Translations under genes and position numbers: made by a program
Source of the DNA: a bacterium
Lineage (GTDB): Bacteria > JAMCPX01
Length of the DNA stretch: 33,542 nucleotides
Reading direction: 5' to 3'
Assembly (NCBI GenBank): GCA_021789095.1
Contig: JAJYJX010000003.1
Span: 1-33,542, forward strand
Part shown: positions 4,706 through 32,547 of the stretch, piece after piece
Layout of the letters: every line of letters starts with the position of its first letter
How positions within the stretch are numbered: position 1 is the first letter of the stretch
The notes under the pieces: generated by a model
What the model was told of the DNA's origin: nothing
The model's database searches: none
What the model saw: only the letters and a program-made list of their open reading frames with translations

Positions 4706-5557
4706 TTACTCCTTAAACCTCGGTATTTGTGCAGTTACCTTGCCTGTGGAGGGGGCATACTCATAAGGCATATTACCGATAGGATCGGGCAGTTGTGCAA
4801 GAATGCCTTTTTCAACAAGTTCTGATAATGACGACGGAAATCTACGGAACCGTTTTTTGTATTCCTGAACTGCCTGATTCAGCATATCGACATTCTTTTT
4901 CTGGGTAAGAACTGCGATGTTGTTCTTCGCGGCTGATCGTATGAATTCATTGTCAGACATCTTTGCAATGGCCTCCCACATCTCAATACCCTGATCGGGT
5001 GATGCAAACTTGCCCAGTGCATACGGAGCAAAGGTCTTGTACTGACTGGGCATATCAGGCAATGTATTTGCGATGCTGAAATACTTGTAGGCGTTATTAT
5101 AATCTTTACCCATGTAATATATAAATCCAAGGCCGAATGCAGGCCTCCAATCTTTGGGATTGTTTTTCACTCCTTTATCCCCGAGCAGTATTGCATCCTT
5201 AGAATCATTTGCCCATGTTGCGAGAAAAGCAGAACCAAAGTTATATGCATTGATAAACTTCGGATCAAGGGATGTTACAATATCCAGAATGTGATAAAGA
5301 TACGGGTATGTGTTGCCCGAAATGGCATGTTGCCCTATGTATTGGATAGACCTTAACCAGAAAATATCTGCAAGCAGGTTATTATATCCGAAAGCGATGT
5401 TCTTTATGAAACTTGTTTTAGGGAAATAAAACAACTCAGGTATTGGGTTACTGTTTTCAGGTGATGTTTGATCAATGATTTTGCCAAGGGGATAGAGGGA
5501 AAAAGCGAGCATCAGGAAAATTATGGTCAGTGTAAATGTCTTAATAATACGGTTCAT
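4706..5557 (-). CDS. Membrane-anchored TPR-like pilin-locus protein (PilG/XapA-like)
   Basis: N-terminal hydrophobic segment, LADIFWLRSIQY, LDPKF..AY, helical TPR-like repeats; lies downstream of pilin and ABC genes. Confidence 0.7.
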   Translation of the reverse strand: MNRIIKTFTLTIIFLMLAFSLYPLGKIIDQTSPENSNPIPELFYFPKTSFIKNIAFGYNNLLADIFWLRSIQYIGQHAISGNTYPYLYHILDIVTSLDPKFINAYNFGSAFLATWANDSKDAILLGDKGVKNNPKDWRPAFGLGFIYYMGKDYNNAYKYFSIANTLPDMPSQYKTFAPYALGKFASPDQGIEMWEAIAKMSDNEFIRSAAKNNIAVLTQKKNVDMLNQAVQEYKKRFRRFPSSLSELVEKGILAQLPDPIGNMPYEYAPSTGKVTAQIPRFKE

Positions 5558-5579
5558 TAAAGGTACTCCTTAATCTTTT

Positions 5580-5673
5580 CTGGATTCCCGCCTTCGCGGG
5601 AATGACAGGAAAAGGAAATTTGTCATTCCTGCCCGTGGGCTTCTCCGAAGGTATGCTTGAGCAGGAATCCAGT
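5580..5673. repeat. Left ~94-bp direct repeat (inverted A1 + long-loop A3)
   Basis: Matches 6010-6102 with 5 substitutions and 1 indel by manual alignment, including the AT-rich linker. Confidence 0.9.
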
Positions 5674-5709
5674 CTGCTTTTGTCCCGCATTTGATATAAA
5701 ATCCAGATA

Positions 5710-6000
5710 TTATTTACAAACATCATCATATAAATCTTTCCATTGAGGATTATTACTCTCAATGAGAGTCAGTTTCCATTTTCTTTGCCAATTTTTTATT
5801 TGTTTCTCTCTCATAATTGCTGCCTCTGCTGATTCATGTATCTCATACCATACAAGCTGGTGCACATTATACTTCTTGGTAAAACCGTCAACCACATTAT
5901 TTTTATGTTCATAAATACGTTTAACGAGGTCTGATGTTACGCCGGTGTACAAAGTACCATTTTGTTTACTGGCAAGTATATAAACATAGAATCTTTTCAT
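5710..6000 (-). CDS. Stand-alone GIY-YIG nuclease
   Basis: 96 aa: FYVYIL...LYTGVT.DL.KR..EH, A..REKQIK.W.R.WK..LIE..NP.W.DL; conserved Tyr, Arg and Glu present. Confidence 0.92.
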   Translation of the reverse strand: MKRFYVYILASKQNGTLYTGVTSDLVKRIYEHKNNVVDGFTKKYNVHQLVWYEIHESAEAAIMREKQIKNWQRKWKLTLIESNNPQWKDLYDDVCK

Positions 6001-6009
6001 TTATATTCT

Positions 6010-6165
6010 CTGGATTCCCGCTTTCGCGGGAATGACGGAAAAGAAAGTTTGTCATTCCTGACCGTGGGCTTCTTCGAAGGTATGCTTGAGCAGGAATCCA
6101 GTTCCTCTTTTTTGTCATTCCGTGCATATATTTTGTCTACTCCGCACTTGTGCGGAGGAATCCAG
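6010..6165. repeat. Right direct repeat (6010-6102) plus a composite family A unit (6114-6165)
   Basis: CTGGATTCCCGCTTTCGCGGGAATGAC; GTCATTCCTGACCGTGGGC...GCAGGAATCCAG; GTCATTCC...TCCGCACTTGTGCGGAGGAATCCAG. Confidence 0.88.
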
Positions 6166-6179
6166 TCTTTTTTCTCTAT

Positions 6180-6983
6180 TCACCGCATCTCCTTCTTATT
6201 GAATACAACCGCAGACAACATCAACATGATGACAATATAAATAACCGTATAAACTACAAGTAACACAAGGTGCTGAGCAGACGGTACAATGCCGTAAATA
6301 GCAAGGTCACGCAGATTTAAATTGCTGAAGTTTGGAAGGATATAATAAATGATCTTGAGTAATGCCTTTGCTGCCTGACTGTTTACCTTATCTACCAAAG
6401 ACTTTATCGTATCAAGCCCGTTGCCGATAATGTAGACAAAGAAGGTAATGATCGATGCAACAATGGGTGATGTAAATGTGGAAAAGAATATGGAAATGGC
6501 AATCACAATGAGCATGGCAAGGTATGAGTAGACAATAGCGAGAATGATATCTCCGATAAATATCGTCCTTATTGTCCATTGGGAATAGTAGACATTTCTG
6601 TTAAAGGAAAAGAGGATCGCAAAAAAGATTATCGTCATGAATATTGTAACGACAAACACCAGAGACGCAAGCCCGAGGAACCTGCCGACCAGGTATTCGG
6701 ATCTTTTTATGGGTGTTGTAAGGATTGTATAGATGGTCTTTTGCTCTATGTCTTTGTAAATTATGGATGCACCCATGAAGATTGCTATAAGCACACCGAA
6801 GATCATGATACTTGCAAGTCCTACATCCTGTGTGATCTTTATGTATTCACCCATACTCAGTGCTGCAAGACCGTATGATGCAAACATCATGAGCAAGGCA
6901 AACAGCAGAAGCAGGTAAAGTATCCTTTCCCTTATGCCTTCTTTAAAGCCTGTCGAGGCAATGGCAAAAATCCTTTTAAACAT
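6180..6983 (-). CDS. ABC-2 type permease (PilI/Xap-like)
   Basis: About 6 TM helices; DIEQKTIYTILTTPIKRSEYLVGRFLG motif; AAGGAG SD upstream. Confidence 0.88.
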   Translation of the reverse strand: MFKRIFAIASTGFKEGIRERILYLLLLFALLMMFASYGLAALSMGEYIKITQDVGLASIMIFGVLIAIFMGASIIYKDIEQKTIYTILTTPIKRSEYLVGRFLGLASLVFVVTIFMTIIFFAILFSFNRNVYYSQWTIRTIFIGDIILAIVYSYLAMLIVIAISIFFSTFTSPIVASIITFFVYIIGNGLDTIKSLVDKVNSQAAKALLKIIYYILPNFSNLNLRDLAIYGIVPSAQHLVLLVVYTVIYIVIMLMLSAVVFNKKEMR

Positions 6984-7296: not shown

Positions 7297-8409
7297 TTAG
7301 GCTTGCTCCTTTATCATCTTCGATATCAGCGTTTCCAGAGACTGCCTTACCGGCTCTACCTTTATAATACTGAACCCGTTTTTGATAAGCTCTGATAAAA
7401 TGGTATTTGTTTTTTCCATATCATTCACGTGAAATATGCATTGTTCATTGTTGCAGGTAATGTTCTTTACAAGTTGTTTTATGTTATTACTAATTTTCTC
7501 CTCTCCCCTTGTGGGAGAGGTAGGGTGAGGGGTAAAAGCAGTTATATTCACGCTTGTTGCACCTGTATCAACAAGCTCGCTTACAGTGCCGATCTTAATG
7601 ATCTTGCCTGTTCTGATAACAGCTACGTGGTCGCACAGCTCCTCGGCATCCGGAATAATATGTGAGCTGAAGAATATGGTCTTGCCCTGCTTTCTGAGCT
7701 TACGCAGGATCTCCTTGAATTCCGCCCTGCCGATCGGATCAAGCCCGCTCATAGGCTCGTCGAGGATCAGAAGCTCCGGATCATTGATAAGCGCCTGTGC
7801 CATGCCGAGTCTTTGCAGCATACCCTTGGAAAAGGCGCGAAGCCGGGTATGAATTGCATCTATCAACCCGACAAGCTCAAGCTTTTCTTTTATAAGAGCA
7901 TCAACAGTTCCCCTCACCTTATTCCTCTCCCCAGAGGGGAGAGGGGGGGGTGAGGGGGTATCTTCTTCTCCTTGCCCAAGCCCAGCCTGGGTACCTCCCT
8001 CCTCTGTCATTCCGTGCTTGACACGGAATCCAGATTGTTTTTCAGAGAGAGAGGTAGGATGAGGGGAGTCCTTCATATTATACAGCCTTGCATAAAGCTT
8101 CATAATTTCAAACGCAGTAAGATAAGAATAAAAATTGGGCGTTTCCGGCAGATAGCCTATATTATTTTTCACATCAGTATCATCAAGGTCTTTATCAAAA
8201 AGCTTTATACTGCCGGAATCATACTTCAGAAGGCCAAGGATGGATTTGATAAGGGTTGTCTTGCCAGCGCCATTCGGGCCAAGGAACCCGAAGATCTCCG
8301 CCTTTTTTACGGAAAGATCCACATCCTTCAACGCCTCATACCTGTGTACAAACCCGCGCGGGTAGGTTTTGTTCAATCCTTTTATTTGTATAACTGCCTG
8401 TTCACTCAT
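7297..8409 (-). CDS. ABC transporter ATPase (PilH/XapD-like) with in-frame repeat-derived insertions
   Basis: Walker A GPNGAGKTT, signature FSKGMLQR, Walker B LLILDEP, H-loop SSH; ~53-aa non-canonical insert before the signature. Confidence 0.92.
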   Translation of the reverse strand: MSEQAVIQIKGLNKTYPRGFVHRYEALKDVDLSVKKAEIFGFLGPNGAGKTTLIKSILGLLKYDSGSIKLFDKDLDDTDVKNNIGYLPETPNFYSYLTAFEIMKLYARLYNMKDSPHPTSLSEKQSGFRVKHGMTEEGGTQAGLGQGEEDTPSPPPLPSGERNKVRGTVDALIKEKLELVGLIDAIHTRLRAFSKGMLQRLGMAQALINDPELLILDEPMSGLDPIGRAEFKEILRKLRKQGKTIFFSSHIIPDAEELCDHVAVIRTGKIIKIGTVSELVDTGATSVNITAFTPHPTSPTRGEEKISNNIKQLVKNITCNNEQCIFHVNDMEKTNTILSELIKNGFSIIKVEPVRQSLETLISKMIKEQA

Positions 8410-8851: not shown

Positions 8852-9055
8852 GTCATTCCGTGCATAGACACAGAATTCAGTCTCTTTCTTCTGGATTCCG
8901 TATCAAGTACGGAATGACGGAAGAAGCCGTTCGTCATTCCTACCGGTGGGCATCTTCGAAGGTATGCTTGAACTGGAATCCAGCTTTTCTCTGTCATTCC
9001 GAACTTGTTCCGGAATCTCAGGTTTTTTTAGACCCTGAAACGAGTTCAGGGTGAC
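8852..9055. repeat. Cluster of five family A-like palindromes downstream of pilA
   Basis: Units at 8852-8880, 8891-8918, 8933-8983 (A3), 8993-9019 and 9030-9055. Confidence 0.85.
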
Positions 9056-32142: not shown

Positions 32143-32476
32143 CAATGACAACCCTGTCCCCGGGTCTGATATCGAACCGTGAAGACAAACCGTATTTTAT
32201 CTCAAGAACACTGCAAGCCCTTTTAACTGGCATAGAGAACCTGAACGGTTTGAGATGTTTTACAGCAATAACTTCCAATGAGCTGTTCAGAAATATCGCA
32301 TCAATGCTGAAAAGCATGAACATGCTGTGCACACAATTGCACCCCGTTATAAGCAATGCGCAATCATCGGGCAAATCACACCTGAACATCAAGCCTTTCA
32401 ATCTGTCGGGAATTGTACCGGCGATGAACAGTTTAAAGCATGCCTTACTGCTTGTCCCGTTAGAAAGCCTCGCCAT
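32132..32476 (-). CDS. DUF192 family protein
   Basis: R.KGLMFR, VHSMFMLFSIDAIFL, VLEI, I.PGD; start uncertain, ATG 32476 avoids overlap with the upstream gene. Confidence 0.8.
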   Translation of the reverse strand: MARLSNGTSSKACFKLFIAGTIPDRLKGLMFRCDLPDDCALLITGCNCVHSMFMLFSIDAIFLNSSLEVIAVKHLKPFRFSMPVKRACSVLEIKYGLSSRFDIRPGDRVVIDEQ

Positions 32477-32547
32477 TTTCAGCCCAGAGCTGATCCGTCT
32501 CTGACAGAATGGCAGGAATAATATGATAAACCCCTTTCTAACGGGGT
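32456..32547. mobile_element. ACCCCGTTAGAAA-family element spanning a gene junction
   Basis: CCCGTTAGAAA from 32456 ... TTTCTAACGGGGT (32535-32547). Confidence 0.6.

Follow-up and report, generated by a model that had tools for sequence, protein, structure and literature searches.

Why does a gene for a small nuclease stand between palindromic repeats in the middle of a transporter operon? The question is raised by contig JAJYJX010000003.1 of assembly GCA_021789095.1, a 33,542-nt stretch of bacterial DNA that was analysed at its full length and is called the window below. An open reading frame (ORF) at 5710-6000 of the minus strand (stop codon included), here named ssn, encodes a 96-aa GIY-YIG protein and is flanked by hairpin-forming repeats. 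A sequence-only reading of this DNA had proposed a minimal selfish system, in which the nuclease spreads or maintains the palindromes in the manner of RAYT and REPIN, and is itself possibly gained or lost by recombination between repeats. Judged by its sequence, the small ORF is an Ssn-family nuclease and a close homologue of SsnA, and the gene with its repeats is a new example of a published system, not a new kind.

The assignment came from the ORF list, the Pfam match and the match to Neisseria. The GIY-YIG domain (PF01541) covered residues 4-76 of the 96-aa protein with E 1.2e-17, and no second domain reached its curated Pfam cut-off in this single-domain protein. In the plasmid collection, tblastn located a match of 61.8% identity (E 3e-32) encoded in a 2.17-Mb record of N. 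gonorrhoeae, and BLASTP against this SsnA homologue gave 55 identical residues out of 90 (61%, E 4e-44). The homology criterion for Ssn membership was that given by Chenal et al. (Nat Commun 2025, PMC11893778), E < 1e-10 to Neisseria SsnA, and the window protein, judged on the N. gonorrhoeae homologue, lay well inside this limit. Residues Y7, Y18 and E65 aligned with the Y, Y and E of the N. gonorrhoeae protein. Their spacing of 11 and 47 residues is that of Y6, Y17 and E64 in the published SsnA, and all three were invariant across an alignment of 17 Ssn homologues.

As reported by Chenal et al., SsnA from N. meningitidis (NMV_0044) is a 94-aa GIY-YIG protein; in vitro it bound the NTS solely in single-stranded form and cleaved a few nucleotides upstream. 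Assignment to CDD cd10448 (GIY-YIG_unchar_3) is a further mark of the Ssn family. The Y6A, Y17A and E64A mutants kept binding and lost cutting. The Neisseria NTS was defined as CGTCATTCCCGCGMAVGCGGGAATCYRG, and a degenerate search sequence was given for SRMs. Cutting depends above all on the three nucleotides ahead of the palindrome, and binding on the C that follows it. The same work found SsnA homologues flanked by repeats on at least one side in 71% of cases and on both sides in 42%, and an SsnA homologue was encoded in 81% of the genomes with >200 SRMs.

The window gene lies between two such units, which form the ends of a cassette. The 5' end is an intact 27-nt SRM/NTS hairpin at 6010-6036 (minus strand), of the CGTC-1 type discussed below, with an 8-bp stem and a 4-nt loop. 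It reads GTCATTCCCGCGAAAGCGGGAATCCAG on the minus strand, folds as DNA with -9.0 kcal/mol, and ends 9 nt ahead of the ssn ATG at 6000. The 3' end, located 3 nt past the stop codon, is a decayed SRM of the 28-nt class at 5682-5706 (plus strand), inverted with respect to the gene. Its best alignment against the 26 short repeat variants of the genome scored 12, and the same alignment of 2000 random genomic 25-mers reached a maximum of 9, with none at 12. The decayed unit is a real repeat remnant, in which the pairing is all gone (0.0 kcal/mol). Both units, with their distances of 3 and 9 nt, were found where the sequence-only reading had placed them, in the geometry that it had recognised in the short-spacer doublets of the window.

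The association is not particular to this locus. In a species scan (one genome per prokaryotic species), 548 relatives were found among the candidates examined, and the best 80 loci, with 59-77% identity, were analysed. They came from genomes labelled Nitrospirota, Thermodesulfovibrionia, Aminicenantes, Desantisbacteria, Dehalococcoidia, Patescibacteria, several proteobacterial classes and others. With the strict published SRM pattern, on which all counts at homologue loci are based, an SRM lay within 100 nt of ssn in 49 of the 80 loci (upstream in 33, downstream in 31, on both sides in 15). Near the gene we counted 66 matches in 15.9 kb (4.15/kb), compared with 16 in 175 kb (0.091/kb) beyond 300 nt, so that SRMs within 100 nt of ssn were 45 times denser than farther off. 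The enrichment at homologues that the sequence-only reading had named as a check was observed, and its partnership of nuclease and GTCATTCC-type palindromes is borne out by SsnA homology, by the fit to the NTS/SRM motif and by this enrichment. It also reproduces the published association of gene and repeat independently, on 80 other loci.

The orientation of the flanking repeats was nearly fixed. Upstream SRMs were forward in 31 cases and inverted in 3, whereas downstream SRMs were inverted in 29 and forward in 3. We also inspected 11 loci, mostly without a strict match, and observed long-loop or variant hairpins: forward hairpins with the same ends, some of them long-looped, stood 7-10 nt ahead of the ATG, and inverted copies overlapped the C-terminus of ssn, sometimes providing its stop codon. 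By orientation and spacing across the loci, the canonical cassette in this clade is SRM(+), 7 to 13 nt, ssn, SRM(-), with the tags pointing outward. The window copy has exactly this arrangement, but its 3' end has decayed. The head-out orientation of the flanking hairpins should be useful beyond this instance.

Within the window, GGAATCCAG occurred at 25 sites (0.27 expected) and GTCATTCC also at 25 (1.03 expected), numbers so far above expectation that the repeats are not due to chance. The genome, G000, is a metagenome-assembled genome (MAG) of 2.15 Mb in 203 contigs, 92% complete, and holds 119 GGAATCCAG and 152 GTCATTCC sites. Ninety-four units were complete and exact-ended, mostly 27 or 28 nt long, with a further long-loop class of 47-56 nt. 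The 27-nt class has the form (C/T)GTC + ATTCCCGC + GAAA + GCGGGAAT + CCAG, and the 28-nt class has a 5-nt loop, CTTGA. The inner 3-bp stem was perfectly complementary in 77 of 81 short units and came in nine different complementary versions, whereas the outer ATTCC/GGAAT pairs, the GTC tag and the CCAG tail were fixed. Inner stems that vary and yet remain complementary, between fixed ends, indicate that the hairpin is maintained and that the sequence of the ends is under constraint. The published SRM search sequence matched 6010-6037 and 5580-5607 among 8 places in the window. Over the genome it matched 43 times, whereas 15 dinucleotide-preserving shuffles averaged 6.3 matches and never gave more than 12. 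The richest genomes in PMC11893778, with >200 copies, lie well above this count.

The window contig makes up 1.6% of the bases and has 25 of the 119 GGAATCCAG sites (binomial tail 5e-21), a figure to be taken with caution, as a MAG may under-assemble repeat-rich regions elsewhere. We observed mutS, topA and dprA within the SRM-rich part of the contig (window 13711-19768 and 9128-9712), together with a pilin-like gene with an N-terminal methylation motif. DprA (DNA-processing protein A) is the single-strand DNA mediator of natural transformation, and SsnA modulates this process in Neisseria. The co-location of SRMs with these genes is therefore worth a look, although dprA is a widespread gene.

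The sequence-only reading had also suggested that nuclease clade and repeat subtype might vary together, and they did. We compared 97 loci, 17 from the sampled relatives described below and 80 from the species scan. The motif KxWxRxWK was present in 82 of the proteins, 70 of which were encoded within about 120 nt of elements of the GTC(A/G)TTCC type, 12 beside neither type and none beside the GTCATTGCGA (ATTGCGA) type alone. All seven proteins with KxGxRxxK adjoined the GTCATTGCGA (ATTGCGA) type, although these seven came from six genomes, some closely related, and represent fewer independent events. Protein clade tracks repeat subtype. Pairs of enzyme and site were anticipated in PMC11893778, without a mapping in its relevant sections, and the present pairing offers them ready-made for single-strand DNA tools.

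In terms of distribution, we sampled 61 genomes, G000 and 60 relatives, and took E 1e-28 or better as a close homologue. A close ssn was found in 12 of the 61, G000 included; in the window's own family it was found in G000 and in 3 of 11 others. The window ssn gene is present in a single copy in G000. Some relatives were multi-copy, with broken fragments (11 matches in G049 and 8 in G059). The neighbour of the ssn copy on contig C71 of G002 had no match in G000. Short GTCATTCC...GGAATCC units numbered 81 in G000 and at least 10 in 15 other genomes. A close ssn occurred in 8 of the 16 genomes with at least 10 short SRMs and in 4 of the 45 others (Fisher p 0.0012), a comparison in which the threshold was chosen after the counts had been seen and the related genomes are not independent. 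The phage collection returned four distant GIY-YIG matches only, of <40% identity, and gave no sign of phage carriage of ssn. In the plasmid collection, 34 records matched, mostly large replicons of Rhizobium, Sphingobium, Sinorhizobium and Shinella, and 33 of the 34 were typed as non-mobilizable.

Taking together family membership, catalytic residues, repeat identity, cassette geometry and enrichment, each as observed above, we are confident that ssn would encode an Ssn-family site-specific single-strand DNA endonuclease, held in the usual compact cassette in a repeat-filled spacer of an ABC (ATP-binding cassette) transporter operon. By homology with the N. meningitidis SsnA, the protein would bind the hairpin when the DNA is single-stranded, in substrates that would include the template of the lagging strand and DNA entering by transformation or conjugation. 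For recognition, the protein would need the GTC tag ahead of the stem and the C that follows the stem. Cleavage, which we expect in this organism by homology, would fall a few nucleotides 5' of the GTC tag, and duplex DNA, RNA and the opposite strand would be spared. The cellular role is probably the control or processing of single-stranded DNA bearing SRMs, and the gene probably persists as a cassette prone to gain and loss.

Several observations weigh against this assignment. The SsnA comparison used the N. gonorrhoeae homologue and began at residue 6 of the window Ssn. A scan of Ssn with NCBIfam gave no family-level match, only a sub-threshold TIGR01453, and the solved structure closest by sequence in the PDB, 1zg2 (E 2.6e-5), belongs to another small GIY-YIG family. 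At the level of the repeats, the 3' SRM of the window cassette is decayed, and a strict SRM was absent within 100 nt in 31 of the 80 homologue loci. Moreover, 8 of the 16 SRM-rich genomes were without a close ssn, one of them 100% complete, so that the repeats can persist without the gene, or with an undetected partner.

We then consider the spacer as a whole, which bears on how the cassette came to its place. The spacer is 622 nt long and separates an ABC-2 permease gene (6180-6983) from a TPR (tetratricopeptide repeat) gene (4706-5557); with an ABC ATPase gene (7297-8409), all lie on the minus strand. The neighbours are as the sequence-only reading had named them, and the ORF is AT-rich, as it had noted (32.6% GC compared with 44.8% for the window and 40-41% for two neighbouring genes). 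In gene direction, the permease stop is followed by an inverted 52-nt repeat, an inverted 51-nt repeat, a forward 27-nt repeat and ssn. After ssn come 3 nt, the inverted decayed 25-nt repeat, an inverted 51-nt repeat, a forward 27-nt repeat and 22 nt with AAGGAG, which lead to the ATG of the TPR gene. The intact units all start with GTCATTCC and finish with GGAATCCAG. The 52-nt SRM-ended element occupies 6114-6165 (plus strand), between a repeat dimer and the permease stop codon. That dimer (copy 2, 6010-6102) is a head-to-head pair of the long-loop 51-nt SRM at 6051-6101 (plus) and the 27-nt unit at 6010-6036. Copy 1 (5580-5673) pairs the long-loop 51-nt SRM at 5622-5672 (plus) with the 27-nt SRM at 5580-5606 (minus), which fits the SRM search sequence, folds with -8.9 kcal/mol and stands 22 nt ahead of the TPR ATG. 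The unit at 5580-5606 is the same-strand partner of that at 6010-6036, 430 nt apart.

These dimers are the direct repeats of about 94 bp that the sequence-only reading had described as bracketing the gene, with 5 substitutions and 1 indel. Their comparison (5580-5673 and 6010-6102, 93/94 nt) indeed gave 88 identical positions, 5 substitutions and 1 indel, and BLAST lengthened the match to 90.7% over 107 nt. Each joins a 27-nt unit and a 51-nt unit head to head, a type of dimer found again, with other spacers, at 8911-8983 in the window (contig C59) and on contigs C39 and C190. The two that bracket ssn are closest to each other (90.7% compared with 82-84% to the third window copy). The direct repeats are two copies of an SRM dimer, a standard arrangement of the family, and not target duplications. 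Around the ssn cassette no target-site duplication was evident, nor any duplication beyond the whole repeat dimers.

Between 5400 and 7300, a promoter scan gave five promoter-like sites where 5.4 were expected, and a terminator scan found none; co-transcription of ssn with the operon is only a guess. The assembled short contigs of four sequencing runs from one study break at the repeats, and the joints listed at the locus have short sides (19-36 nt) or derive from other repeat copies. In these four mine drainage metagenome runs, the stretches with the 27-nt SRMs (window 5540-5603 and 5988-6051) had a summed contig depth in the thousands, compared with about 5-9 for unique flanking sequence of this organism, so that many community members appear to share the repeat.

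We also observed repeat-derived inserts in frame within the ABC ATPase gene (7297-8409, minus strand), at ~7950-8060 and near 7420-7460. One of them is an SRM at 8006-8033, translated as ..SGFRVKHGMTEE.. in the protein. At the same point, after NMKDS, the genes of the relatives G011 and G007 hold different inserts, which indicates that this loop tolerates repeated insertion of repeat DNA.

The operon itself provides a comparison. The ABC ATPase, permease and TPR genes were kept in four genomes of a sister genus, with permeases 86-88% identical to that of G000 and 86-96% identical among all five genomes. In G000, a clade-A ssn follows the permease. In G002 and G011, a clade-B ssn occupies the same site after the permease, flanked by GTCATTGCGAG-type hairpins; these two proteins are 96.8% identical to each other and 55-56% identical to the window Ssn. 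In G005, a clade-B ssn, 81% identical to the G002/G011 copies, lies in the other spacer, before the permease, and the spacer after the permease has a single forward hairpin right after a left flank homologous to that of G002. In G007, neither spacer holds an ssn, and a different small gene follows the permease. Five genomes thus display four cassette states, with two spacers and two clades or the cassette absent. Since the neighbours diverge by about 12-14% and the ssn clades by 44%, the position shared by G000 and G002/G011 is not simple orthology.

This comparison gives good evidence that cassettes were gained, lost or replaced in SRM-seeded spacers. It draws on five related MAGs whose right-hand insertion boundaries did not align; it supports turnover of the cassette, and the agent of movement lies outside its reach. 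Recombination between repeats as the route of gain and loss, as the sequence-only reading had proposed, is compatible with the cassette states in the relatives. One operon with four cassette states amounts to a natural experiment, the type of evidence needed to test the mobility of cassettes and repeats. In the searchable literature we found no report of Ssn cassette mobility, and supplementary Data 3-5 of PMC11893778 may list this lineage or similar polymorphisms of position.

The small gene of G007 (contig C305, L039) starts MKIYYNKKLKHLAARLRNNSTKAEIKLW.. about 190 nt past the permease stop, at the site of ssn in G000. By eye it looks DUF559/Vsr-like, and it is flanked by another hairpin family (..cccctcttattagaggggagg..). 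Its presence suggests that the spacer collects small nuclease genes.

Does Ssn itself move the cassette? It is possible, and in our view doubtful, that the system is a selfish element in which the SRM hairpins and the cassette owe their spread to Ssn, just as REPINs owe theirs to RAYT. The enzyme would cut at hairpins, and host repair or recombination would paste copies elsewhere; the 430-nt stretch from 6036 to 5606, bounded by same-strand SRMs, would be the transferred piece. In one concrete version, single-strand cuts 5' of the two forward 27-nt units of the coding strand (6036 and 5606) would free exactly the dimer-bracketed unit. The IS-like inverted ends in fixed orientation at the 80 homologue loci point this way, as do the four cassette states of one operon in five related genomes, the patchy distribution (12/61 genomes) and the spread across phyla, at 60-77% identity in MAGs labelled Nitrospirota, Aminicenantes, Dehalococcoidia, Patescibacteria and others. 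The several copies and broken fragments in G049 and G059, and the in-frame SRMs inside a coding gene, agree with it as well. Mobility or spread by Ssn was raised in the Discussion of PMC11893778, there as a hypothesis only, and the IS-like NTS-ssnA-NTS layout and the analogy with RAYT/REP were already noted in that paper. However, the genome holds a single copy of the window ssn, with a decayed 3' end and no evident target-site duplication, and half of the SRM-rich relatives (8/16) are without a close ssn. The operon comparison reveals turnover but not its agent, in five MAGs with unaligned right flanks, and the runs, whose short contigs break at repeats, contained no reliable empty allele or circle junction. 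We must also note that GIY-YIG nucleases hydrolyse DNA, and none is known to join or transfer strands or to pass through a covalent intermediate.

A related and equally tentative proposal is that Ssn cassettes are mobile units homing to their own recognition hairpins. Ssn would cleave single-stranded DNA on the 5' side of an SRM already in place, and SRM-SRM recombination by the host would copy the gene in or delete it. The 430-nt unit between same-strand SRMs, with its two dimer copies, would be the footprint of such an event. The nuclease clades would each move together with a hairpin subtype of their own, and the SRM-seeded spacers of conserved operons would serve as landing pads reused by different clades.

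We consider it improbable that Y1 (HUH) transposases from other parts of the genome move the SRMs, with Ssn acting on the SRMs without spreading them. The sequence-only reading had stated that the window contains no RAYT or other transposase. This holds, as no Y1 transposase was found on the contig and no transposase Pfam family in the 24 window ORFs scanned (ssn and 23 of the 25 ORFs with 110 aa or more), where the sole recombinase was an XerC-like gene beside hslVU. It holds for the window only, since the genome has three Y1_Tnp genes on other contigs: C189 (141 aa, IS200-like), C43 (221 aa) and C143 (323 aa), the latter two proteins being longer and RAYT-like. An SRM pair begins 26 nt past the stop of the C143 gene; nevertheless, the 129 nt available upstream of that gene are without an SRM, and one adjoining pair is weak evidence where SRMs are common in intergenic DNA. 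The 13-kb contig C189 is free of SRMs, and on C43 the SRM nearest to the Y1 gene is about 6.8 kb off. RAYTs, moreover, are tied to GTAG repeats and not to CGTC repeats, which in the conclusion of Di Nocera, De Gregorio and Rocco (BMC Genomics 2013, PMC3733652) have no dedicated transposase.

That an unrelated small gene simply fell into repeat-rich intergenic DNA is hardly credible and was dropped: on so repeat-dense a contig (25/119 GGAATCCAG sites in 1.6% of the bases) any small gene could be flanked, but in unrelated genomes 80 homologue loci keep this repeat, with its spacing and orientation, at a density 45 times that of their wider flanks, the clade/subtype pairing contradicts coincidence too, and the partnership of SsnA and repeat was demonstrated biochemically in PMC11893778.

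The genome has another small GIY-YIG gene, on contig C172 (298-575), whose 86-aa product is 41% identical to the window Ssn and looks UPF0213/SLX1-like by eye. The gene lies wholly within inverted arms CCCCGTTAGAG...CTCTAACGGGG that span 278 nt in total, and the right arm contains its stop codon. Genome-wide, these arms also surround 41 further stretches of 78-205 nt, all gene-less, some with shared and others with unrelated interiors; two of these copies are in the window, at 363-452 and 32342-32546. In G002 this cassette is found again at the corresponding site and its protein is 98% identical, and more distant homologues of the protein sit at the ends of tRNA genes. The gene and its arms look like a second, different pairing of nuclease and repeat.

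Among known systems, the GIY-YIG homing endonucleases of the I-TevI type share the domain and provide, in break-induced selfish copying, a possible model. Unlike the window Ssn, which is a bare domain with, by homology, a putative single-stranded target, they have a separate DNA-binding domain, cut duplex DNA, and are sited in introns or encoded by free-standing phage genes. An autonomous insertion sequence (IS) is not a description that fits: the window element has inverted ends, yet it is present in one copy and without target duplication.

The likeness to REPIN/RAYT systems is closer, with short hairpin repeats and dimers, a single-copy enzyme gene between its own repeats, and recognition of the hairpin in single-stranded DNA. 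The enzymes differ, as RAYT is a HUH tyrosine enzyme with a covalent intermediate and Ssn a hydrolytic GIY-YIG nuclease. The flanked gene of the window accordingly lacks the Y1 domain (PF01797), and its repeats bear the tag (C/T)GTC, i.e. CGTC or TGTC, in place of GTAG. For Ssn, a transposition step is hypothetical.

As repeats, the window units belong with the CGTC-1/CGTC-2 families of repetitive extragenic palindromic (REP) sequences, which include the Neisseria dRS3. According to PMC3733652, these have a CGTC or TGTC tag, an 8-bp stem starting with AT, a loop of 4 nt (family 1) or 5 nt (family 2), a CCA tail and frequent head-to-head dimers; they 'apparently lack a dedicated transposase', and RAYT genes are flanked by GTAG repeats or by unrelated terminal inverted repeats. 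We found the tag, the 8-bp stem, the 4- or 5-nt loop, the CCA tail and the dimers in the window units. Two differences are that 51-nt long-loop versions with the same ends are common in the window genome, and that a dedicated enzyme for the family was not found in that earlier account.

The SsnA/NTS system is the nearest. The differences are that the host of the window is an uncultured bacterium from a mine-drainage metagenome; that the downstream repeat points the opposite way to the gene, in the window and in most homologues fetched; and that in the window copy the 3' repeat has decayed and a head-to-head dimer stands on each side. At the N. gonorrhoeae locus, in contrast, a repeat directly past the ssn stop has the gene's own orientation, which means that the inverted-downstream layout is not universal. 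In the remaining respects the two agree. The window Ssn is likewise a single-domain GIY-YIG protein of about 95 aa with the same catalytic Y, Y and E, its 27-nt unit follows the NTS consensus almost to the letter, and the gene is repeat-flanked in a genome where the repeats are clustered and enriched throughout. With the window case, the published Ssn/SRM system gains a further uncultured lineage.

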